DNA of 64,000 nt from an uncultured bacterium (GCA_937889595.1 CALAOR010000023.1:6614-70613), one strand, 5' to 3'; numbered from the stretch's first letter, positions 42,667 to 64,000 are shown. Notes: a model not told the origin generated them from the sequence alone. A program made the numbers and translations.

Positions 42667-42841
42667 GATACTGTCGGAAAACCCTATAAAACCATGAAAT
42701 TCTTACTCGCTGCCGGGGCAAACAATTTTTTCATATGGCCTGTGCGCTACTAAAACCCTATATAATACAGGCGCACAATCCATATGAAAAAATTGTTTGC
42801 CCCGGCAGCGACCTATCATAAAGGTCTTTTCCGACAGTCTC
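42667..42841. mobile_element. MITE, 175-bp copy containing an inserted palindrome
   Basis: GATACTGTCGGAAAA / TTTTCCGACAGTCTC termini; flanking direct repeat ATATT (42662-66, 42842-46). Confidence 0.85.
42707..42811. repeat. 105-bp palindrome with perfect 32-bp arms
   Basis: TCGCTGCCGGGGCAAACAATTTTTTCATATGG and its exact reverse complement at 42780-42811; inner TGTGCGC/GCGCACA stem. Confidence 0.9.
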
Positions 42842-44656: not shown

Positions 44657-45151
44657 TTAATCAGCTTTCCTTTTCCCGAGCTTATGGTCGAGCTGGTACA
44701 AGCTTCCTTTTGATTCCCCGATAAGCGTTAAAATTCCCAGAATTTCCGAGGTATTTGCCTCTTCTTCCACCTGCTCGTCTATGAACCACTTTAGCATAGA
44801 TTCCGCGGCATAGTCTTTTTCGTCCCTGGCAATTTCCACCAGTTTATATATCAGTCCTGTTACCTTTTGTTCGTGTTCGTAAGCGTCCGTAAAAGCGGCC
44901 AGGGCGTTCTTCCACTCGGTTTTCGGCGCTTCTATGGCTTCAAGTTTGACCCTGCCCCCTCTTTCTATTATGTGGTTATAAAACCTCATTGCGTGGCCGT
45001 ACTCTTCATGGGCCTGTACTTCAAGCCATCCTGCAAAACCCTTGAAGTTCTGTGATTTAAAATCAGCCGCCATTGACAAATACAAAAACGATGAATAAAA
45101 CTCCGCGTTGATCTGTTTGTTGATCGCGGCTTCCATTTTTTTTCCGATCAT
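44657..45151 (-). CDS. ftnA: Non-haem ferritin
   Basis: QINAEFYSS.LYLSM, EEYGHA, HEQKVT, WFIDEQVEEE. Confidence 0.93.
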   Translation of the reverse strand: MIGKKMEAAINKQINAEFYSSFLYLSMAADFKSQNFKGFAGWLEVQAHEEYGHAMRFYNHIIERGGRVKLEAIEAPKTEWKNALAAFTDAYEHEQKVTGLIYKLVEIARDEKDYAAESMLKWFIDEQVEEEANTSEILGILTLIGESKGSLYQLDHKLGKRKAD

Positions 45152-45214
45152 GCCGTTCCCTCCTGAATTCGATTTGTTATTTCAAAAAAATCCCGGCATT
45201 TTCTTTTATTTTAA

Positions 45215-45262
45215 CAATTTTATAATGAATGCAATTTTATAATGACGCTGCAAATTTGTCAA
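45215..45262 (-). promoter_or_regulatory. Ferritin-operon promoter with a 14-bp direct-repeat operator
   Basis: TTGACA-N17-TAAAAT; CAATTTTATAATGA at 45215-28 and 45232-45. Confidence 0.65.
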
Positions 45263-45515
45263 TATTCAATAATTGCAAACATTACAATGCCGGAATATTT
45301 CCATATATGCTGATAATACATAGTGATTTGGATTTTTGTTATATCTTTTTTCCACTTTATATTGACTTTTTTTCAGGAGAAAAACAGGTTGTGGATTTCA
45401 GGGAAATTGGATACTGCGGCTTTAAATATCTATTAGTCATTACCCGACTTTGGAAAATTTACCTGAACAGATAAAGTCCAACAATCCCAATCCTCGTTAT
45501 ATCATTTTGAAATGA

Positions 45516-45543
45516 AATACCCCGCAGCAAGCTGCGGGGTATT
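45516..45543. repeat. REP-like palindrome (may also terminate the TA operon)
   Basis: AATACCCCGCAGC-AA-GCTGCGGGGTATT, a perfect 13-bp inverted repeat. Confidence 0.75.
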
Positions 45544-45557
45544 GTACCTGCGTATTA

Positions 45558-45866
45558 TTAAACCGCGATAAAAATATCAGTTTTTGCTTTGAGCCCCATG
45601 GCAATTTTGCCGATTGTGTCAACTGTGATATTCTGTTCTCCGTTTTCAATTCTTGATACTTCCCCTTGGCTCATGTGAAGCAATTTTGCCAATCCCTTTT
45701 GAGAAATATGCCTTTTCTTTCTTGCTATCTGAACCTGCGCTCCAATCTTGTTTCTTAACTCCTCAACTTTATACTCTGCGTTAAACTCCTTATTTTTCAT
45801 CTGAGTTTCAAGCCAATTATCAAAATATACCGCCTTTTTACCATGGGTCATTGTTTTAGTTTTCAT
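45558..45866 (-). CDS. XRE-family HTH antitoxin (HigA-like)
   Basis: ISQKGLAKLLHMSQGEVSRIENG; ATGA overlap with the upstream toxin gene. Confidence 0.85.
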   Translation of the reverse strand: MKTKTMTHGKKAVYFDNWLETQMKNKEFNAEYKVEELRNKIGAQVQIARKKRHISQKGLAKLLHMSQGEVSRIENGEQNITVDTIGKIAMGLKAKTDIFIAV

Positions 45867-46225
45867 AATATTATCTCTCCTTTTTGAATTCTGTTGTTAA
45901 AATCATTCCTGCGCGCTTTTGCTGTTTCTATATCATTTCTATCTAGATCATTACGTTTCTTTTTGAAAGCACTCAGTAAAACTATCTTATTTTTGATACA
46001 AAAATAGTACAAAATTCTGAAATTATTTGGACTAAATTCTACTCTCATTTCATAAATGCCGTCTTCTATCTTTGCTGCTTTTGGCCTGTGCAATTGAAAA
46101 CCTAATGTTTCCAATTCACTAATAGACCTGGCAATTTTTGCCCTTGTTTTTATGTCCTGTTCCATTAAAAAATCTTCAACATAACTTTGACCGCTTTTTG
46201 TCGTGTAAAAAATTGCTTTAAACAT
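45863..46225 (-). CDS. RelE/HigB (Gp49-like) toxin
   Basis: IFY..G..V.DFL, GIYEMR, FRILY, LLSAFKKK; toxin-first order. Confidence 0.85.
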   Translation of the reverse strand: MFKAIFYTTKSGQSYVEDFLMEQDIKTRAKIARSISELETLGFQLHRPKAAKIEDGIYEMRVEFSPNNFRILYYFCIKNKIVLLSAFKKKRNDLDRNDIETAKARRNDFNNRIQKGEIIL

Positions 46226-46248
46226 CTATCCTCCACCCTTCTATTTAG

Positions 46249-46277
46249 ATTATATACCATATATGGTATACTGTCAA
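46249..46277 (-). promoter_or_regulatory. Consensus sigma70 promoter of the TA operon with a palindromic operator
   Basis: TTGACA-N17-TATAAT; perfect 18-bp palindrome TATACCATATATGGTATA (46253-70). Confidence 0.85.
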
Positions 46278-46377
46278 GTTCTTGTTGGCTGATATCATTT
46301 AATTACTCGACTTTGGCAAATTTGCCTGAACGGATAAAATGCAGTAATCCTAACCCTCATTATATTATTTTGTACTC

Positions 46378-46423
46378 AAAAAAAATGCCCTGCGGGCTTT
46401 GCCTTCGGCAGCCACGCAGGGCA
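46378..46423 (-). terminator. Hairpin/terminator downstream of the VR
   Basis: TGCCCTGCG..TGCC-GAA-GGCA..CGCAGGGCA followed by T8. Confidence 0.75.
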
Positions 46424-46491
46424 AAAATATACACACAAACGAACACACAAAAAAAACATTTCAAAATGTAAAAAGGTAAAAATCCAAAATG

Positions 46492-47568
46492 TTAATACGT
46501 CCTCGCAAAGCGGAAGCCGCTGTAGTAGAACGAACTATACGGGATGTCGTTGAAGCGGATGCCCACCTTCAGGTAGTACGCGTAGTCGTAGGAGCTACCG
46601 CCCCGCAACACGCGTCTGGAGCCGCTTGCAGGTCCTCTATAGTCTGTAGATATACCTGGATAGGTTCCATACCAATCCCAACACCACTCCGCTACATTGC
46701 CCGACATATCATAAAGACCCAGCGCATTTGCTGTTTTTCCGCCTACTGCATGTGGACTACTACAATTTGCATTATACCACGCTACAAGTCCGGTTGCCGT
46801 TGCGTTGGTATAGTCCGCTGTCGCGCCGCTGGCATAGTTATACGGCGTCCAGCTTGACCCGTTTATATAACTTGTCGCGTACTGGTATTCACCTTCTGAA
46901 GGCAATCTGTATCCGTTATTTGTCCATGCACAAACCGCGTTATCACAAGCTGTCGCATTGGTTGAATCCTTTATCACTGCGCTTAAATAGGTATAGCAGG
47001 GTGTCAACCCGGTCTTTTCACTATATGCATTACACCACACTATAACATCCCGCCAGCTCACATATGTTACCGGCTGATATTTTGCAGTGGTCGGTGCGGC
47101 ACTACCTACTGTTTCGTAAATTCCCTCTGCGCCTACATTTTGAAAAGTATAACCGTTGGCAACAGCCCAATGATACACTATATACCACAAATTATACGTC
47201 ACTTGATATTTTCCCATTTTAAAAGCAGATATTGTATGGCTGAAACCACCTGTTCCACTATCATCTGTCTGCGTAAATGTGCCGCCGGGAACTGATACAA
47301 TAACCGAAGAATCAAATAAGGTTTCCGCAGCCACAGCGGTCTGAACTACGGCCACCACTACTGCGGTTTGCGTTGCGTTCACCACTACTGCGGTTTGCGT
47401 TGCCATCGCTACTACAGTTTGCGTGGAAGCGGTTATCGCCGTCTGCGTAGAATTGATGGTTGGAGTACTGGTGGCGCCCGGCCCCGAAGGTTGCGATTTC
47501 TTACAACCGATTGCGGCAAATACTGCAACGACACACAAAACGATAAGTACTGATATTTTTGTTTTCAT
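46492..47568 (-). CDS. Lipoprotein with FGE-sulfatase (CLec-fold) domain; probable DGR target protein
   Basis: Start re-called at MKTKIS (GGGAGG RBS); lipobox AIGC; TQTAV repeats; YRLPSEGE, GLYDMSGNVAEW, RVLRGGS..GFRFAR. Confidence 0.88.
   Translation of the reverse strand: MKTKISVLIVLCVVAVFAAIGCKKSQPSGPGATSTPTINSTQTAITASTQTVVAMATQTAVVVNATQTAVVVAVVQTAVAAETLFDSSVIVSVPGGTFTQTDDSGTGGFSHTISAFKMGKYQVTYNLWYIVYHWAVANGYTFQNVGAEGIYETVGSAAPTTAKYQPVTYVSWRDVIVWCNAYSEKTGLTPCYTYLSAVIKDSTNATACDNAVCAWTNNGYRLPSEGEYQYATSYINGSSWTPYNYASGATADYTNATATGLVAWYNANCSSPHAVGGKTANALGLYDMSGNVAEWCWDWYGTYPGISTDYRGPASGSRRVLRGGSSYDYAYYLKVGIRFNDIPYSSFYYSGFRFARTY
46495..46626 (-). other. DGR-type variable region (VR)
   Basis: C-terminal ~43 codons with NNC codons (TAC, GAC, TTC, ATC, AGC, AAC) at positions where DGR templates carry AAC; followed by T-rich heptamer repeats. 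Confidence 0.7.
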
Positions 47569-47599
47569 TTGAAACCTCCCTTTAGATTCGGTTGAGTTG

Positions 47600-47627
47600 A
47601 TTATAACCCTCCCCATTATTTTGTAAA
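47600..47627 (-). promoter_or_regulatory. Sigma70-like promoter inside the cassette
   Basis: TTTACA-N16-TATAAT about 30 nt upstream of the ATG. Confidence 0.55.
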
Positions 47628-47693
47628 GTTTTTACATTTGCAGAATAAATTTTTTAAAGTCGAGTAATTAGTCATTTGTAATTAGTAATTTAC

Positions 47694-48857
47694 TTAGACA
47701 AGCCCTTCAGGATTTAAAACAGTCCCGCCTGTTTTCATGACTTCCTGCAATTTCTGATAGTCCACCGTATCGCCGAGAAGAATTGCTCCGCTGAGTTTCC
47801 CATCTTTTATGAATACCCGCTTGAAAACCCCGCCTTCGTGTTTTGTAAATACCCTGGTGTCAGCGTCTGCCTCGATATTTCCCATGGAGCCCAGGTCTAT
47901 GCCCGCGACTTTGAGCTTTGCGGATAAAACGCTCCCTTTATATTCTGTTTTTTCCCCAGCCGCGTTCAAACCCGCCGCAGTGCCCTGTTCTTTCGCGGCC
48001 GGCCATATGCCATATACCATGCCGTTGTACTCGGTTACGTCGCCGCAGGCATAGATGCCGGGTATATTTGTTTCCATAAAATTATTCACTTTTATCCCCT
48101 TATCCGCCGCGATATCCGTTCCTTCTATGATCTTCAGGTTACTCCGGATTCCGCTGGAAAACAGTATGAGTCCGGCCGTAAGGTTTGTGCCGTCCTTGAA
48201 ATTCACGGTCAATTCATTTCCCGCGGCTGAAATTGTTTGCGCTTGTTTAGGAAGCATGAATTTAAGGCCTTTTGTCTCGAGCATGGCCCGCAGGATCGCT
48301 GCGCCGTCCATGTCAAGTTGCCGCGGGAGCAGTCTGTCAAAAAACTCGACTATCGTTGTCTGCAATCCCCTCGTGACAAGCGATACAGCGGCTTCTATGC
48401 CCAAAAGCCCTCCGCCGATAACTGCCGCTGTTTTTTTATCTTTTGAATAATTAATGACGGCGTTGGCGTCGTCTATGGTGCGCAGCGTAAAAACCCCGGG
48501 ATTTTTCGAACCTTCAACCGGAGGTATGAAGGAATAAGCCCCGGCCGCTATTATTAACTTGTCATAGTTTTCTTTTGCCCCGTTTTCCAGGATAACTGCC
48601 CTGCCACCCGCATCGATTGATCTTACATTAACCGGGTATATAAGATTGATCCCGTTTATATCGTAAAATTCCTTTTTCTTTATTATTATCTGTTCCTGCG
48701 TCACCCTGCCTGACAAAAGTTCAATGACACGCGGCCTTGAATAATGCGTGTACTTCTCGTCGCTTATCATGGTTACCGCTATTGAAGGGTCTTTTCTTCT
48801 GATACCCTCGGCCGCCGCTATTGCAGCCGCGCCGTTACCTATGATCACTATTTTCAT
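47694..48857 (-). CDS. FAD/NAD(P)H-dependent oxidoreductase (NADH:rubredoxin oxidoreductase-like)
   Basis: GNGAA, YSRP, GGGLLG.E, IYACGD, KLKVAG. Confidence 0.85.
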   Translation of the reverse strand: MKIVIIGNGAAAIAAAEGIRRKDPSIAVTMISDEKYTHYSRPRVIELLSGRVTQEQIIIKKKEFYDINGINLIYPVNVRSIDAGGRAVILENGAKENYDKLIIAAGAYSFIPPVEGSKNPGVFTLRTIDDANAVINYSKDKKTAAVIGGGLLGIEAAVSLVTRGLQTTIVEFFDRLLPRQLDMDGAAILRAMLETKGLKFMLPKQAQTISAAGNELTVNFKDGTNLTAGLILFSSGIRSNLKIIEGTDIAADKGIKVNNFMETNIPGIYACGDVTEYNGMVYGIWPAAKEQGTAAGLNAAGEKTEYKGSVLSAKLKVAGIDLGSMGNIEADADTRVFTKHEGGVFKRVFIKDGKLSGAILLGDTVDYQKLQEVMKTGGTVLNPEGLV

Positions 48858-53043: not shown

Positions 53044-54337
53044 CTACTTCACAACCGCCGCCTTCATAACCCCTGACGCGTGTTCCCCGCGGCTTGTTGA
53101 TGCCTCAATCCTGTATATGAAAACACCGGATGCAACGGGCTTTACTGCCCTGTTCTTTCCATCCCAATAAATGCTGTTATATCCTGCTTTACCGGCTATA
53201 TCTTCCTGCCACCTTACAATCTCCCCTGATACGTCAAATATTTTTATCTTAACATCCGCATCCACTGAAAGTTTATAAACTATCTGGGTGTCGCGGATAA
53301 AAGGATTGGGGAAATTGCCCTTTAACTCCAGTATAAGAGGAAGCGGAGTTGCGGTAAAAGTCGGGGTCATGGTCTGCGTTGCCGTAATGGTGGGCGTGAT
53401 TGTCGCGGTATAAGTGTCGGTAAAAGTCTGCGTTACGGTAAAGGTCGGCGTGTCCGTGAAAGTTGGTGTCACTGTGAACGTCGGTGTTACAGACGGTGTG
53501 GCGGAAAAAGTCGATGTTCCCGTAAATGTCGGAGTGGACGTATTGGTCCAGGTCACAGTGGGAGTGTCGGAAAAAGTCATGGTTCCCGTAAATGTCGGAG
53601 TGGACGTAATGGACGGTGTTATAGTGAACGTAGAACTGAAAGTATACGTCGGTGTAATTGTCGGCGATATAGTGACGGTTTCCGTTATAGTATGCGTCGC
53701 GGTGATAGTGCCTGTCGGTGTCATGGTTGAAGTCGGGGCGACTGTCATGGTAAAAGTCGGGGTGGTTAAAAGCGCCTGTCTGTTCAGCCCGTAATAAGTC
53801 ACAAACGAAATACTCTGCCCGGGGTTGAGTGGGAATCCGGGCGAGGTTTCGTTCCCGTTGCACCACCATAAAACCACGGCGCTGTCATTCCCGATCACAC
53901 CGGCCGGAGACAAGGACCACTGGCCCGGTGCGGCAACCCCCACCCAGTTCGCTATCTCCATTATATCCGGTTCCGTCGCAGGCTCATCATATGGATTGTT
54001 TTTTGTGTACCCTCTTCCCACAAGCGTCGGGGTGCCGGGCGGCGGAATATCATAATCCCACCAGTCCGGCTTTATCTGGTTTAACGATTTATAATAAACT
54101 GTATTTGTTGTGATAAAGTTAAAGCCGTTGTCCACAGAAATATTTGCACCGTCGTTGGTGAGCACTTGCGTATCCAGTTCCAGCCTGAGAGCTACAGTAC
54201 TTGTAACGGCTGTTGTGTTTTTCAGGGTATATTTGATCTTGGCCGTATCCTGGGGTGAGCCGGCAGGATTATTTACAATTTCCCAGTCTGAACTGACATC
54301 TATACCCGCATAATCCAATTTGGCGTTTACGGTCAAA
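53044..54337 (-). pseudogene. 5'-truncated Thr-rich surface protein with FlgD-Ig/T9SS-like C-terminal domain
   Basis: No signal peptide or own start; fused in-frame to a DUF1016 fragment; CTD homologous to that of the 10895 gene. Confidence 0.6.
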
Positions 54338-54574
54338 ACCTTCCCCATAAAACAAAACCTCGCGTCAAGCTCAAGCATAAACCACTTTACCCTCTCCACC
54401 AGCCGTTTTTCAAGCTTCCTTTCAAGAACAGATTTAGTGAATACCAAGAAAACCCAGATTATAAACACTCTTCATGGACTCATCAACCTGTTTCGCCAGA
54501 TGCATAGGCATAGCCTTTGCATAATTGTTGGATTTTTTATCCTTTTTTACGTGCGTATAAGCGTCGGTGGTCAT
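54338..54574 (-). pseudogene. Fragment of a DUF1016/YhcG PD-(D/E)XK nuclease gene
   Basis: After a GAGGAGG RBS: ...LAKQVDESMKSVYNLGFLGI, frameshift, then SVLERKLEKRLVERVKWFMLELDARFCFMGK, resembling the YhcG LE..L...I..FLLELG.GF.FVG motif. Confidence 0.6.
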
Positions 54575-54811
54575 CTATGCCTCCTCAAAATGAATTAGCC
54601 TAGATTTTACCACCTTTTGAACAGATAATTATAATTGTCGTTTTCGGGAGTTTTAATTGTCATCAATCAGACATAGGCCACAAACAAAATAGGTTCGTTG
54701 ATAACCCCAGATTTCCTGCGCAGGTTCCTTACCGAAATGGTCTTTGGATTTTATTTACATATAATCATTATGTTGTTGTATTTGGTTATATGACTACGAG
54801 TTTACTCTTGC

Positions 54812-57800
54812 CTAAGGCGTCTGCGTTGGCACAGGCGTACAGGAACCGCAATTTTCGTTATACCGCCACAATGTCATATCATAACCATTTGTAACTCCAA
54901 ATATCACTAAGCCGCCCGTTGTCACGATCTTGCCGTAATTCGCCCCGCTGCCCGGATAATTATTGTAAACTGCGGACTTCATCGAATGATCCATCGCACC
55001 CGCCGCGGTTGTATAAGACACTATATTGGTTCCATTGCCAAATGACAAATCCGGCGTGCCGTCCGCGAAGTACCTAGCCATGAACATTATGGGCAGATAT
55101 GACGCATCGAACGCGTACCCGGTTGCCACCACCCTGCCGCATGTATCTATCAATATCCCGGCTCCGTCTTCATATGATCCGTTCGAATATATCTTGGGAG
55201 AGACCCATGACTGGTTGCCGTTTTGATCAAATTTGTATATCACCATGTCATCGTCAACGCCATTACTCATGCTTCCTGCTACGTAAATATAATCATTTTT
55301 GTCGATTGCAACGGCATTACCGTAAGCATATCCCGAATTGTTTACGGTTTTTGGCCATCCGGATTGCAGCGTCCCCGTTTCGCTAAGTTTCCATAAAGCA
55401 ATTTCGTAACCGGAGCCGCCATATATATAACCCGCAATATATATCTTCCCAGTCGAATCCACAGCTATGCCGCCCGGCGTAGGATAGGTGGACGACACGA
55501 CTACTACCACGCCATTTGTTCCAAAAGTTGTGTCAACCGACATCGTAACCAGGTCATACCTGATGACAAATAAACTTGTGCCGCCCCCGCTGATATTGCT
55601 TGTCCCGGTAATCAGGATTTTTTCATGCCCGTCTGAAGACGCCGTGTAGGAAAATATTCCCGTAACCACGTCTGTGTTATTGGCGTGGTCGTTTATGAGG
55701 TCATCCATGTTCAACACCAGCGTGCCCCCGGTACCGGGGACATACTTCCAGAGCGCCAGATTTGCACTATAATTCGGGTATGCCGGCCATATGATTCCCA
55801 CGACCCATATATTTCCCGACAGATCTTTTGTAATATCAACACCCCTGCTGCTGTCGCATGTATATGGCACAGTCACATTGCCGGAATTATCGGTTTTCCA
55901 TAACGCCATCTTGTTCATCGGATATTGACCGCTTATGGCTGTGGAACCGGTTACATATATGTTATTATCACTTCCTATGACAACACTGCTCCCTTTGTCC
56001 TGCGTGTAGCCTGCCCCGCCCGCGCCGTCATTGTTCACATAGCCATTTGACCCAAATCCGGCGTCAAGCGAAACACAATTGGTAACCATTGTAGGGGTGA
56101 TAGTCGGGGTCGGTAGAACGTTTATAGTCAAGTCTAAATTATATTGTTCAATAATATCACTTGAATTAAAAGGAGTTACTAAAACATAATAAACACCTGC
56201 ATCTAAAGTCACAGATATTTTGGAATAGTAATTAGCACCACCATCATCGTCAGTTATTATTGGATCACCCGACATATTATTACCGGAATAAAGCGTTAGT
56301 ACCGTATCATCATCACCTGTTCCCGAAGTTTCCAGTACAACGTCTGAACGGTAAGTTAATTCAAATTTAACCCAGTCATGATCACCGGCGGGCATTATAC
56401 TATGCACCTGGCGCGTGCCGCCTGTAATAGTACTGGCGTTCAAATATGAACCGTCATCCTCATAAGCATCAAGTACAAGAGTAGGTGTGGTTGTAAATGT
56501 CGGGGTTGATGTCAGGAAAGGTGTTGTTGTGTATGTGCATGTCGGTGATATAATAAGTGTATTTGTGTACGTGGGTGTAGCAGTATCCACAAATGTAGCC
56601 GAATCGGTTATAGTAGATGAATATACAGGTGTTTGCGTCAGAGTTAGTGTTTCTGTTCCCGTATTTGTTAAAGTTGGAGTAATAGATGGAGTAATATCAA
56701 AAAACTCCACCTTGTCAACCCATCCACTGTCATCAAGATCGCTGTCGCTTTCATCTTTGGCATATTCCCATCTTAAAGTATGTAATCCGGGCTTAAGCAC
56801 AAATTGCATATTTTCCCAGTCAATTGAACCGCTTATTTCACCCAGATTTTCATCATCAACATAAAATAATAAGTAGTCATATGCTGCTTCCGACGCAACC
56901 TTCCAATAGAAACTCAATATTTTGTAATTATTAAAATTTACGGTTGTTTGCATAAATGTATTATCGTTATCTCCGATTCTCCCGCTTACAGCCGAAGTCC
57001 CGCCAAAATATGCTGTAAATGTGTCAACTGTCCATTCCATACTTCCACCTGTATACCAGTCCGAGCCGGTATATTCAACCGCCGCGCCAAGTCCATATGC
57101 CGCAGTTGAAGTCTGTGTAACTGTAAAAGTAGGTGTTATTGTAGTTGTAAAAGTATTTGTGACTGTAAACGAATAAGTTTGTGTCGAAGAATAAGTAGCA
57201 GTAAGGGTAACGGATACCGTGGATGTGAGTGTCCTACTTGGTGTAATCGTCGGCGTGAAAGATATGAATATTGTTTTTGTGTATGTTGGAGTATAGGTTA
57301 GTGAAATCGTAAATGTTTTTGTTATAGTTGTTGTTGGTGTAGACGTTTGAGTCCGTGTTCTGGTTGGAGACGCCGTAAAAGTTTTTGTCTTTGTCCCCGT
57401 TGGCGTGATAGTGGAAGTCCTGGTTCGCGTAGGTGTCACTGTCATTGACTTCGTCCTTGAACCGGTTGGTGTTATGGTGGGAGTTTTCGTCTTTGTCCAC
57501 GTCGGTGTAATTGAAGACGTACGCGTAAAGGTGTTGGTAACAGTTCTCGAAAGTGTTGGTGTGCAGGTAGATGTTGACTGCGGTGACTTCGTGATTGTTG
57601 AGGTTGCCGTAAATGTCTGTGTAAAAGTTCCGGTATTGGTAATTGTGCTTGTTCTGGTTGCAGTCAAAGTTAGTGTACTTGTATATGTTGAAGATAAAGT
57701 ATGCGTATTTGTAGCAGTTAAAGTTTGTGTAAGACTTGATGTTGTGGTATAAGACGCAGTTGATGACAAAGTAGCGGTAAATGTAAGAGTCGGAGTGAGC

Positions 57801-60596: not shown

Positions 60597-63500
60597 TGAA
60601 ACCTCCCAAATTCGGCATTTTGAAATAACAATTCCGGATAATACGAATAAAAATCAAAATAACCATCGAAAGCACCTGCACCACGCGTAGGATAACTTGT
60701 CAAATTATCAAAAATATTGAAAACATACTCATAAGCCTGATAATTAATGGCTGAAGAATCGACATTATTATAATAATCGTAAATCAAATCTTCAATCTGG
60801 TAATTATATTTTGACTTAAAATTACTCGGTAATCCAGAAGTTCTATTTATATAGATATCATTGACTTTGCTTGCTCCAAGATTATATGAAGCTGCTGCAA
60901 TCTTAAATCTTTCAAGAACAGAAAGAGCTATCGTCGCCTTATATAACTTGTCAGGGAAATAAGTAAAAGTTCTATTATACAAAACGGTTAAATATCTGGC
61001 AACGAATTCAAGATTCTTTTTAGACTCATAGGCTCCGTTTATGCCTCCCAAAAAGGTAGGAAAAGTAACGCCATCTCCCAATGGCGGCGCTACTTCACCA
61101 AAACATATCGACGTAATCTGCCCATATCCTTTGGCGTGTGTATACGAGAACGCGATTTCGCCAACGCTTCTCATGTGTATCATGCATGATTCCTGCTGAA
61201 CCAACGCCATACAAAATGCCGTAAATGAATTTCCGTCAAAATCATAATAGGCATGATCAACGAACTCGGTTGGTATGCCTGGAGGCCAATCCGCTGGTCT
61301 GATGTTCGTTTCATCATATCCAAAATTATAAAAATTATGATATAAACTGTTTGCAGTATCATTATTACTATATGGAATTAAATTATCGTATAATCTTGCT
61401 TTGGTATATATCCATTGTAATAGTTTGTTATCTGCTATATACTCCCTGTCTGAGTTTGCGGGTAATAACGGATTGTCCGGTTGTAAGTTGGCATACTTAA
61501 CCATCGTTGAATCAGTAGAGCTATATAAGTTGTTTAGGTCCAGAGCGTACGCAGTATTCAATGTAACCATAGCCTGCGACAACTGGCTACCCCACCAACC
61601 GTCCAATTGCATTCTTATATACGGGTAAATTATAGTGCCGTAATATGAAGCTATGTTCTGGTTGGTGGTCATAATAATATTCACCATCCTTTGAAGCTGC
61701 TGCACCGCATATGAACCAACTGCACCCGCAGAATAACCATTAGTATCATAATACAAAATATTGTCTGTTGAGATTCCGTTGTTTGCAGGATCAAATACCA
61801 GTTCATTATTATCACTCATATAGATACGATTTATTGTGCATGGGTAATATATATTACCGTCTGACGCGCGAAATCCTCCATAATAACCAGCGGCGCCTCC
61901 GGCAGTAGCTACACTTGGTTCAATATTTGCCGCCGTAGAACAAGGAATTACAGTTGCAAAAGGAAAAACAGTTGTATCTTGTGACCTGGCTCCTCCGTCA
62001 TATGACACTGCCATTTTTGAATTATTTACACTGGATATTTTGCTGGGTGAATTACTATCCTGATCCTTCCATGGATAACCGTTAACATTAAATTGCAGAG
62101 TGTAATCCCACGGAAGAACTCGTGTGCCTAAATTATTTGTAAAATTCCAGGTAAAACTTTGACCATTCGCAACCGTCACACCAAAAGTTGTGTTATACAC
62201 CGCATTGCTATTTTTATCTTTCACAACAATATTCACAGTGCCTGGCTGAATCATATCATAGCCCAAACGTACATACTTGCTGGAATTGGAATAGATATTT
62301 TCTACATTATATGTCCCTGGTGTTGGGGTAACTGTAAATGTTATAGTAATTGTTGATGTTGGAGTATTTGTTGGGGAAATAAATGTAGGTGTTTTCGTAT
62401 TTGTTGCCGTGTAAGTAAATGTAATTGTAACTGTTCTTGTATAGGTAAAAGTCGGCGATATACTATATGTGGGTGAAATTGTTTGGGTCAGGGTCATTGT
62501 TCTGGTCGGCGTCACGGTAAAAGTGGGCGTAATCGAAAATGTTTTGGTTATTGTCGGCGATGCTGTGTTTGTTGGTGAAAATGAAAATGTTGGAGTTACA
62601 GTAGGTGTGGAAGTCTTTGTCGCCGTAGCTGTAAATGTAGGCGTTGAAGTCGCAGTCCAACACGGCCCGCCACCGATGGCATATAGTGATGTGTAACCCT
62701 GAACATATAGAGTTCCATCATGAGAAAGTGCTGCGCCAAAATTAAAAGTTCCAGTTTGAATACGCCACATTACATTTCCGGCGGCATCAACAGCGTGTAT
62801 ATTACCATCTGACGACACATATACATTACCAATTGCATCAACCGCATTACAAACAGAATATTTCAAATCGGCACCATACTGACTTCCAGGTAATACTGTA
62901 TCCCATGCAAGTGCCGGAGTCGATGTTCCATTTGGAACTAGTTTATCGAGCCGTAGAACTCCGCCTTGTGCGCAATAAACAAAGTACACACCTCCGTCGG
63001 GAGATAAAGCAATATGTTTGTTTACATTTGTTATGCTTGGCACCATGTAGCTCCACTGTTGAATCCCAAATTTACTTAAACATTTAACCACTGTGCCATT
63101 ATTATAATCAAAATTTCCAATATAAATATTTTCTGATGGATCTATAGAAATTCCATTATTGCCCGCACTTCCATAATTCACTGTCCAATTTGGCGTTGTA
63201 CTTGGCGGTGTATAACTGTATAAAATCCCACTATCGCTTATAAAATACACATTACCGCTTTTAGCTACCGCACCTTCGGCATGTCCTGTATCAGGCGCAA
63301 CTGACCAAACTACAGAACCGTTGCCATCAACCTCTTCAGCTTGGACACTTCCACCAGTATACCCTCTGAACATATATATATTGCCGTCCTGTACAAGCGA
63401 GCCAACATTTGGTTGTTGTTGTGCATAACCATCATCAGCATAATTCTTTACAGGTGTTCCATTTTGCGAATTATAGAACTGTAATAAATAATGCGGTTGA

Positions 63501-64000
63501 AGATTAGTTCTGTGATAAAATTTTAAAACTTCATTATTATTCATGACAACCGCTGACCGAGGTTCGGCATCTGATGGATCAACAGGATTGTTCCATAATG
63601 GATTTCCAAACGCGTCATATGCAAATATAGCATTGGTACTTCCGGAAAATACTCTACCCATTCCATCAACAACACCTCCACCAAAACCATACTGAACAGA
63701 TGCCTGCCAGCGTATGTCCGCTGTTGTCGGCCCAATAGCGGAACCAATACAGCTGTACTGTGCGTCTTTTCCGGCCATAGGCCAACCCGGCCCCTGTAAT
63801 GGAGAACACGGAGGCGTTTGTGTTACCGTGGGTGTGACTGTGCTTGTAGGCGTTATTGTGTGGGTGAAAGTAATTGTACCCGTTTTTGTGACTGTGAACG
63901 TATTCGTAAATGTGGGCGAAACTGTATATGTCAAAGTCACAGTTGGCGCGTTACTTTGACCACACCAAGAAGGAAAATGGGGGCCATATGCCGACTTATC
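60593..64000 (-). CDS. Giant surface protein (start outside the window): Thr-rich stalks, PQQ-like propeller, FlgD-like Ig, C-terminal SLT/lysozyme-like domain
   Basis: Frame stays open to the window end; ALVQQES, AKGYGQI, NLEFVARYL, AAASYNLG, YVFNIF motifs. Confidence 0.8.
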   Translation of the reverse strand, partial: DKSAYGPHFPSWCGQSNAPTVTLTYTVSPTFTNTFTVTKTGTITFTHTITPTSTVTPTVTQTPPCSPLQGPGWPMAGKDAQYSCIGSAIGPTTADIRWQASVQYGFGGGVVDGMGRVFSGSTNAIFAYDAFGNPLWNNPVDPSDAEPRSAVVMNNNEVLKFYHRTNLQPHYLLQFYNSQNGTPVKNYADDGYAQQQPNVGSLVQDGNIYMFRGYTGGSVQAEEVDGNGSVVWSVAPDTGHAEGAVAKSGNVYFISDSGILYSYTPPSTTPNWTVNYGSAGNNGISIDPSENIYIGNFDYNNGTVVKCLSKFGIQQWSYMVPSITNVNKHIALSPDGGVYFVYCAQGGVLRLDKLVPNGTSTPALAWDTVLPGSQYGADLKYSVCNAVDAIGNVYVSSDGNIHAVDAAGNVMWRIQTGTFNFGAALSHDGTLYVQGYTSLYAIGGGPCWTATSTPTFTATATKTSTPTVTPTFSFSPTNTASPTITKTFSITPTFTVTPTRTMTLTQTISPTYSISPTFTYTRTVTITFTYTATNTKTPTFISPTNTPTSTITITFTVTPTPGTYNVENIYSNSSKYVRLGYDMIQPGTVNIVVKDKNSNAVYNTTFGVTVANGQSFTWNFTNNLGTRVLPWDYTLQFNVNGYPWKDQDSNSPSKISSVNNSKMAVSYDGGARSQDTTVFPFATVIPCSTAANIEPSVATAGGAAGYYGGFRASDGNIYYPCTINRIYMSDNNELVFDPANNGISTDNILYYDTNGYSAGAVGSYAVQQLQRMVNIIMTTNQNIASYYGTIIYPYIRMQLDGWWGSQLSQAMVTLNTAYALDLNNLYSSTDSTMVKYANLQPDNPLLPANSDREYIADNKLLQWIYTKARLYDNLIPYSNNDTANSLYHNFYNFGYDETNIRPADWPPGIPTEFVDHAYYDFDGNSFTAFCMALVQQESCMIHMRSVGEIAFSYTHAKGYGQITSICFGEVAPPLGDGVTFPTFLGGINGAYESKKNLEFVARYLTVLYNRTFTYFPDKLYKATIALSVLERFKIAAASYNLGASKVNDIYINRTSGLPSNFKSKYNYQIEDLIYDYYNNVDSSAINYQAYEYVFNIFDNLTSYPTRGAGAFDGYFDFYSYYPELLFQNAEFGRFQ

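Follow-up and report, generated by a model that had tools for sequence, protein, structure and literature searches.

The window analysed here is the whole 64,000-nt stretch of DNA from an uncultured bacterium and lies on contig C23 of a 3.42-Mb genome (G000; 93 contigs, 98.96% complete). The gene under study, on the minus strand at 46492..47568, codes for a TvpA-like FGE/CLec lipoprotein of 358 residues with a signal peptide, a linker and an FGE-sulfatase domain. Our ORF call is longer (46492..47616, 374 residues); the start in public records is located at 47568, which gives the 358-residue protein (P0121), and an SD-like AAGGGAGG lies upstream of the ATG at this position. A promoter-like site, TTTACA-16-TATAAT (47600..47627, minus strand), is assigned by consensus match only, with 11 of 12 matches. 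Read from the sequence, the N-terminus is a signal peptide with a lipobox-like AIGC, and a linker rich in Thr, Gln, Ala and Val connects it to the FGE-sulfatase domain (Pfam PF03781, E 2.7e-31, residues 106-372 of the 374-residue ORF). The best solved relative of the lipoprotein is Treponema denticola variable protein 1 (2y3c, E 2.4e-27); the alignment covers residues 112-356 and includes the variable region (VR). The protein combines the three properties of the TvpA-like class, namely an FGE-sulfatase/CLec domain, a C-terminal VR and a lipoprotein signal. An earlier note on this DNA had named FGE-type CLec lipoproteins (TvpA, LdtA) as DGR targets.

The VR consists of the final 128 coding bases of the gene (46499..46626, minus strand). 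It is colinear with natural TRs of DGRs: it aligns without gaps to the TR of a metagenome contig (L091) and matches codon for codon the TR of a genome of the same order (G020). Codon usage changes abruptly in this tail. C-ending codons account for 24/42 (57%) in the tail versus 56/316 (18%) upstream (Fisher p 1.6e-7), and GC3 is 36/42 versus 127/316. The last 42 codons include six TAC, three TTC, two each of GAC, ATC and AGC, and one AAC. Both the codon shift and the series of NNC codons described in the earlier note agree with these counts, and the tail sequence is as given there.

The VR closes with an IMH-like 3' end of 20 nt, GGCTTCCGCTTTGCGAGGAC (46499..46518, minus strand). The same letters are found at the VR ends of metagenome contigs L080 and L093, and the TRs read AGT or AGC where the VRs have AGG. 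The gene is followed by an AT-rich 3' flank (46424..46491, minus strand) that is conserved among the paralogues and the intact cassettes described below and has about one base different from the flank behind the L091 target. The motif directly after the stop codon is present in 8/12 copies in this genome and also behind the targets of L048, L080, L088, L090, L091 and L093. Beyond the flank there is an element (46378..46423, minus strand) composed of a strong hairpin with an inner GAA loop (46386-46423) and a run of eight T (46378-46385). The AT-rich flank and the GAA-loop stem after the stop, both pointed out previously, are present, and the 131-nt fold has an MFE of -36.5 kcal/mol and a z score of -3.76. 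The hairpin is nearly identical in G020, L080 and L091. Since it is located ~70 nt past the stop and is followed by the eight T, it looks like the intrinsic terminator of the lipoprotein gene; a part in target recognition, which the earlier note ascribes to downstream hairpins, would be a putative further role. An Rfam scan of 45000-48000 gave nothing near the gathering score.

The gene, its promoter-like site and its putative terminator are contained in a 1,359-bp cassette (46306..47664, minus strand) that is bounded by TIRs and has no transposase within. The right, or TR-side, subterminal end (46306..46380, minus strand) ends in an exact 18-nt TIR (46306-46323), and the left TIR (47647..47664, minus strand) matches at 15 of 18 positions. 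TAATTA, a candidate target-site duplication, is found on both sides of the cassette (46300-46305 and 47665-47670), but TAATTA-like hexamers flank most ends and may reflect a target preference or be part of the end. A second copy of the right end, 81% identical, is present at 45439..45517 (minus strand); the two copies make up a 79-nt direct repeat (D11). Between them sits a HigB-like (Gp49; PF05973, E 2.8e-20) and HigA-like (HTH; PF01381, E 9e-13) gene pair (45558..46225, minus strand), with the second right-end copy behind it. The higBA pair is context only and lies outside the DGR footprint. In the syntenic loci of a genome of the same genus (G001) and one of the same family (G004), which are too diverged for base-level alignment, the oxidoreductase gene leads straight to the ferritin gene and the insert is absent.

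Intact DGR cassettes with homologous targets are found in relatives. In G020, a 4.6-kb contig (C181) carries a complete cassette on one strand, in the order FGE target, HRDC (PF00570), bAvd (PF22296), a 337-residue RT (RVT_1, E 4.6e-19) and a 128-nt TR. Its TR and VR differ by 17 changes at adenines and two C>G changes near the 3' end. L091, L093 and L080 also carry the target, HRDC, bAvd, RT and TR, and the TRs in L080, L090 and L091/L093 each adjoin RT, bAvd and HRDC genes. A motif scan of metagenome contigs returned 16 loci, of which six are true TRs, two are VRs (L083 and L092) and eight are unrelated. One TR is shared by L080 and L086 and another by L088, L091 and L093, and L090 has its own. 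From TR to VR, the intact pairs show 13-25 adenine changes and 1-2 changes elsewhere, those at the 3' end. L091 and L093 have one TR and different VRs.

The L091 and L093 contigs also reveal the boundaries of the element that carries the cassette. Positions 3092-7745 of L091 and 1-4645 of L093 are 99.27% identical; the homology stops at an 18-nt TIR, and the right flanks differ. The TIR reads CTCGACTTTGGCAAATTT at one end and its complement at the other. Between the TIRs, the full 4.65-kb element contains a DDE transposase (DDE_5/DDE_Tnp_1; PF13546, PF01609) together with the whole DGR. The direct repeat D11 can be aligned to the subterminal sequence on the TR side of the L091 element, and the left 125 nt of the window cassette align with the L091 stretch just upstream of the target gene. 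Based on these subterminal alignments, the window cassette equals the full element minus the segment from HRDC to TR and the transposase. With its ends kept and the transposase absent, it appears to be a non-autonomous derivative of a TIR-bounded DDE transposon, and it probably arose from the full element by deletion. The TIR has 15 matches in G000 at three or fewer mismatches, 12 of them adjoining FGE paralogues; cassettes with a TIR match at both ends are found on C23, C32, C56 and C81.

The tail of the lipoprotein gene carries a DGR footprint. Compared with the TR of L091, the closest TR, the window VR is changed at 21/42 adenine sites and at 9/86 other sites (Fisher p 1.8e-6); the TRs used for this comparison belong to other organisms, none cognate having been found in the bacterium's own genome. 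The DGR origin claimed in the earlier note is supported by this departure mainly at adenines. The template guessed there was also close: the L091/L093 TR translates to RGGSYNNNADNLQVGNRNNNNPNNANNNIGFRFAS, a near-match to the guess. A similar pattern was observed among the copies within G000, for which the G020 TR served as an independent predictor. In the 12 aligned copies (of 13), 59% of the cells differ in columns that are A in the G020 TR, compared with 20% in the other columns (MWU p 5e-12). Within the VR, variability is higher at codon positions 1-2 than at position 3, and upstream the usual reverse order is seen. Between the window copy and its three closest paralogues, 67-73% of the adenine sites differ, versus 9-10% of the bases in the upstream 150 codons, a contrast that points to recent homing in this lineage. 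The window VR has a GC3 of 0.86 and a C3 of 0.57, values that fall within the ranges of VRs adjoining live cassettes (0.86-0.88 and 0.57-0.62); the GC3 of older paralogues and relatives is 0.38-0.71. Third positions are no less diverged in the VR scaffold (0.17-0.24) than upstream (0.23), and a synonymous-site test for VR homogenisation by a shared TR gave no signal either way. A TR inferred from the copies in G000 was rejected as circular and used for ranking only; relative to it the window copy has non-adenine deviations at 4/83 sites, and the other copies have 2-26. We infer that the C-terminal ligand-binding loops were written by a DGR and that homing took place at the window copy in the past.

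The G000 genome holds 13 paralogues of the whole gene. Their tails have a common scaffold, RGG-S....A..LQVGYR....P.......GFRFARTN, and the variable positions between the scaffold residues are mostly NNC codons. The VRs range from fresh to eroded, presenting a gradient of decay in one genome. As the earlier note had stated, RT, TR and avd are absent from the window: the VR is not repeated within it, the genome as a whole gives no RVT_1 match at E<=0.01, and none of the six four-helix-bundle genes (PF05635) above the cut-off in G000 lies on C23. A genome-wide search for a near-copy of the VR beside an RT, which that note had suggested as a check, found no such TR and no RT. All DNA matches to the VR in G000 are whole-gene paralogues, with no short TR-like copy among them, and tblastn with the G020 and L091 RT, bAvd and transposases gave no credible match. 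An RT-like tblastn match on C29 (E 0.013) lies inside an unrelated long ORF. Of the six four-helix-bundle genes, the one whose neighbourhood was analysed precedes a fragmentary paralogue on C57. It was considered as avd and rejected; there is no RT or TR nearby, and an SmpB-like gene (identified by eye) follows. No accessory protein beside an RT and TR was found in G000, and HRDC is present only as a stub of 21-25 codons on C77. This stub (C77:45831-45905) is located directly behind paralogue C77_47220 and is 76-81% identical to HRDC over 21-25 codons, after which the homology ends; its start codon is AGG. Behind C77_47220, the sequence continues to match the cassettes of G020 and L091 across the terminator and as far as these first codons of HRDC, and the stub therefore points to a deleted cassette.

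The distribution of the components in related genomes was also analysed. The FGE family is present in 20/41 related genomes and in 7/7 genomes of the same family; RVT_1 is present in 9/41 and 0/7, respectively. The RVT_1 matches of one related genome (G010) adjoin paralogues and consist of six copies of a 470-residue RT, which we read as a group II intron from its length and copy number. In a viral contig collection, the best RT relative is 43% identical, and no close phage-borne form was seen. RT missing from a metagenome-assembled genome is weak evidence of its absence from the cell.

The variability of the VR was assessed on assembled sequences. The VR has 0 differences in the Logan contigs from runs X1 and X4; those of X3 show two differences and a gap, only one of which is listed and is located outside the VR. 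The depths in these data are 2.6-6.3x, rare variants drop out of contigs, X2 does not cover the VR, and the runs are possibly the source samples. The exact protein P0121 occurs on three contigs, the longest of 111,470 nt. This is longer than the window's contig, indicating that at least one other assembly holds the exact protein. A fragment, P0002, on another contig has the same VR. Clusters built around the paralogues of G000 have one VR common to all members in 6/7 cases, and three sibling assemblies of C88_136385 have the same VR with 14-16 residues different elsewhere. At this low depth and on contigs only, no VR hypervariability within or between populations was seen in X1, X4, P0121, P0002 or 6/7 clusters. 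The earlier note had called for a check of variability, and wherever the VR is covered by these contigs it is identical, with no adenine-specific variation. Two candidates for live diversification were rejected. P0131, a member of the seventh cluster, joins the body of the C77 copy to another tail. The swapped part reaches past the upstream limit of the TR-homologous stretch and is the same as the L083 tail, and P0131 is, as far as its sequence tells, a paralogue mosaic or an assembly chimera. VR-skipping joints in Logan contigs have short sides (32-56 nt) that fit paralogues equally well.

Combining these observations, we consider the window VR to be probably an orphan DGR target that is currently frozen. 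With no RT or TR in the genome the VR is an orphan, and as the gene resides on a stripped transposon copy that lacks the diversifying machinery, the VR is probably frozen. In an intact system, the RT together with bAvd copies the TR into cDNA and misreads adenines, and the cDNA replaces the VR up to its IMH-like end. The full DGR, comprising target, HRDC, bAvd, RT and TR, rides with the DDE transposase in the 4.65-kb TIR element. The 1.36-kb derivative in the window retains the two ends along with the promoter, target gene and terminator and has probably lost the HRDC-to-TR segment and the transposase. It may have inserted between the oxidoreductase gene and the higBA/ferritin region in this lineage. 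The genome carries several such cassettes together with older, decayed paralogues, and the window VR is most likely frozen at its last state. The DGR reading of the earlier note is correct as to the origin and the template, and is probably mistaken in taking the VR to be served at present: its remote target served today is not supported by an assembly that offers no RT, bAvd relative or TR, by the HRDC stub or by a VR that is invariant wherever visible. According to that note, the lack of a TR and RT in the genome or its relatives, together with a lack of A-specific variation, would make the gene a fossil or a non-diversified paralogue. For the bacterium studied here such an outcome is the likelier one, and the window VR would be inactive at present. 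In relatives, both TR and RT exist.

The strongest alternative is that the VR is still a live remote target. A full element, being repeated, IS-flanked and hypervariable, could have remained unassembled or unbinned, and its RT, bAvd and TR RNA would act in trans on the window copy and on the other fresh cassettes, in which the IMH-like end and the 3' flank are retained. The cis elements of this copy are identical or nearly so to those of the targets in intact cassettes; judging by its sequence, the window copy keeps all that a live target has and is still competent as one. Its VR composition equals that of live VRs, and the adenine sites are near saturation between copies with bodies only 9-10% different. 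As the VR is not visibly decayed, the DGR must either have been lost recently or still be in place. However, intact pairs have only 1-2 non-adenine mismatches, compared with the 9/86 between the window VR and the best natural TR. In the genome collection, each of the six nearest RT relatives (61-73% identical) is located on a short contig (1.5-4.6 kb), and some of these contigs are binned with unrelated phyla. Because none of these contigs exceeds 4.6 kb, the cassette seems to assemble and bin badly, which makes a missed cassette plausible in G000. Against this stand the lack of any RT, bAvd relative, TR or element transposase in a 98.96% complete assembly, the evidence from the HRDC stub that at least one cassette was deleted, and the scarcity of the G020-type RT, found in 0/7 genomes of the same family and 1/24 genomes of the order. 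For T. denticola, the available text of PMC4891356 documents that a single TR can serve remote targets, which favours the live reading. The VRs of the window copy and of five further paralogues do not vary from one assembly to another, which speaks against it. Taken together, these points make present service of the window VR unlikely.

A second alternative shares the present state with the frozen-orphan reading and differs from it only in history. The VR could have been set within the full element, maybe in another genome, so that after loss of the HRDC-to-TR segment the cassette was transposed or transferred here already frozen and was never diversified in situ. The full-element ends of the cassette, the site empty in relatives and the differing right flanks of the full element in L091 and L093 all speak for this history, as does a grouping made after viewing the data, in which at least one TIR match lies beside 7/8 young copies and 0/4 old ones. 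On the other hand, the genome has no transposase of the right type to move the cassette. The order of deletion and insertion is unreadable from the data, and we regard this history as improbable. Lastly, an ordinary paralogue family with fast-evolving C-terminal loops and a local codon bias, to which the 13-fold repetition of the whole gene and a synonymous divergence of the tail scaffold no lower than upstream could be attributed, is close to refuted by variation that tracks the adenines of independently found TRs, by the excess variability of codon positions 1-2 over position 3 inside the VR only, by the rise of C-ending codons from 18% to 57% and by homologous genes elsewhere that adjoin RT, bAvd and TR.

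The frozen-orphan reading of the window VR may be part of a larger picture, which we put forward tentatively and consider possible rather than probable: a two-part mobile diversification system, made up of an autonomous DDE transposon with the full DGR and of dormant target-only cassettes whose VRs can be rewritten in trans. The transposon would spawn cassettes that retain its ends and promoter together with the 3' flank and a VR that has the IMH-like end, and these would spread receptor genes around the chromosome and then stay dormant. If so, a later full element could rewrite a dozen scattered VRs at once, and an orphan VR would be a parked target instead of a fossil.

Several known systems provide a frame for these results. 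The DGR of Bordetella phage BPP-1 directs adenine-specific mutagenic retrohoming into the C-terminal VR of Mtd, a CLec-fold protein. The VR has an IMH at its end, the RT works together with bAvd, and homing is aided by a hairpin 3' of the VR. The system is phage-borne and has one adjacent target, and its hairpin is close to the IMH. Unlike in BPP-1, the sole strong hairpin at our locus is terminator-like and located ~70 nt past the stop.

The findings bear on how DGR targets are surveyed. Contig-based DGR surveys miss remote targets, according to the available text of PMC8144416. Surveys that seek a VR next to an RT overlook remote and orphan targets alike, and at the present locus the history of such a target is readable. 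The codon composition of the VR and its non-adenine mismatches suggest a possible clock for DGR loss. In L091 and L093, a small TIR transposon carries a whole DGR as its cargo, and probable deletion derivatives of such an element have dispersed target genes over a genome. A full-text literature search of limited coverage found no single TIR element that combines a whole DGR with target-only derivatives keeping both ends. For DGR biology, our results are a refinement rather than a surprise.

The closest known counterpart is the TvpA system of T. denticola. As described in the accessible part of PMC4891356, nine of 17 strains have a DGR, with HRDC as an accessory gene, and strains with 0 RT and 0 TR keep 3-6 FGE-type lipoprotein targets. 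Where the leftover VRs depart from known TRs, they do so mostly at adenines, and the authors interpret these strains as having lost the core system (PMC4891356). Orphan targets after core loss are thus already known in oral spirochaetes, and the T. denticola strains with 0 RT and 0 TR are a direct precedent for the orphan VR in the window (PMC4891356). The two systems are also alike in that their targets are FGE-type CLec lipoproteins with the VR at the C-terminus, in the HRDC gene, and in having several targets per genome, some of them remote in T. denticola (PMC4891356). Unlike T. denticola, the bacterium studied here belongs to an environmental uncultured lineage and has 13 paralogues, and the intact cassettes have the order target, HRDC, bAvd, RT and TR, with both HRDC and bAvd. 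A further difference is that the target here is located in a TIR-bounded cassette; the word 'transposase' does not occur in the available text of PMC4891356.

A role of transposons in shaping DGR loci is shared with Thiohalocapsa PB-PSB1. In the part of PMC10907252 that is accessible, transposons and MITE-like repeats are described as duplicating and degrading DGR loci, some loci have had their RT or TR replaced, and transposons are proposed to carry DGR parts. The host lineage and the target family are different here. Moreover, in contrast to Thiohalocapsa PB-PSB1, one defined element with a single TIR pair carries the whole DGR, and the target-only unit keeps both TIRs.

The full DGR elements of two metagenome loci, L091 and L093, have one template repeat (TR) in common, yet their variable regions (VRs) are unlike each other. 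Relative to the TR, one of these VRs carries a 6-nt insertion and the other a 3-nt deletion, both in frame, and plain adenine mutagenesis does not explain such indels. The TvpA-like FGE/CLec lipoprotein gene of the window has paralogues in its own genome, and protein records matching these also vary. P0007, P0124 and P0125 are three sibling assemblies of paralogue C88_136385; they differ by 14-16 residues, all within positions 182-339, and despite these differences their VRs are identical. P0040, P0130 and P0131 have the body of another paralogue, C77_47220, with mosaic C-terminal parts, one of these tails being identical to that of the metagenome locus L083. Either the conserved WCWDW stretch served as a site of gene conversion between paralogues, or these mosaics are assembly chimeras.

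The 3' flanks of C77_47220 and of the paralogues on contigs C81 and C56 contain an insert of ~53 nt, which begins 18 nt past the stop codon with a small hairpin (CCAGC-TTTG-GCTGG). This insert is partly present in the paralogues C32_89453 and C88_7114, and is found also in L083. Among the 3' flanks compared, it is missing from those of the window copy and of the intact cassettes, which combine the target with HRDC, bAvd, RT and TR.

The window copy lies in a transposase-less cassette, the left end of which adjoins a heptamer array (47663-47691). Such arrays, each built from some four heptamers (AGTAATT, AGTCATT or TGTAATT), are spread across the whole genome, with 61 matches at up to 4 mismatches, a count that includes overlapping matches. 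They are often paired in inverted orientation, with 60-110 nt between the partners. The transposon family to which the cassette belongs may use these arrays as insertion targets, or may have left them as tiny end-to-end remnants. The region 45439-46380 contains two copies of the transposon right end, which are 81% identical to each other and are each preceded by a hairpin; between them lies a HigB-like/HigA-like pair that has a promoter-like site of its own (12/12 match to the consensus). This layout suggests nested or tandem insertions.

Other repeats were also observed. The window contains a 41-nt inverted repeat, I1 (42707-42811; 95% complementary, 23-nt spacer). Long GT-rich repeats with 6- and 12-nt periods occupy 53348-57790 and 62322-63951 of the window and 2651-7999 of contig C57 in the same genome. 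They code for very threonine-rich proteins (TQTVTQTV...), and on C57 the open frame is longer than 1,700 aa.

In another genome compared, G010, a 470-aa RT gene is present six times on contigs C9 and C10 (locus L049), every copy having the same RVT_1 score of 142.1 bits. Half of these copies (3/6) are located 0.6-7 kb from FGE paralogues. Judged by its length and copy number, this RT is read as a candidate group II intron.
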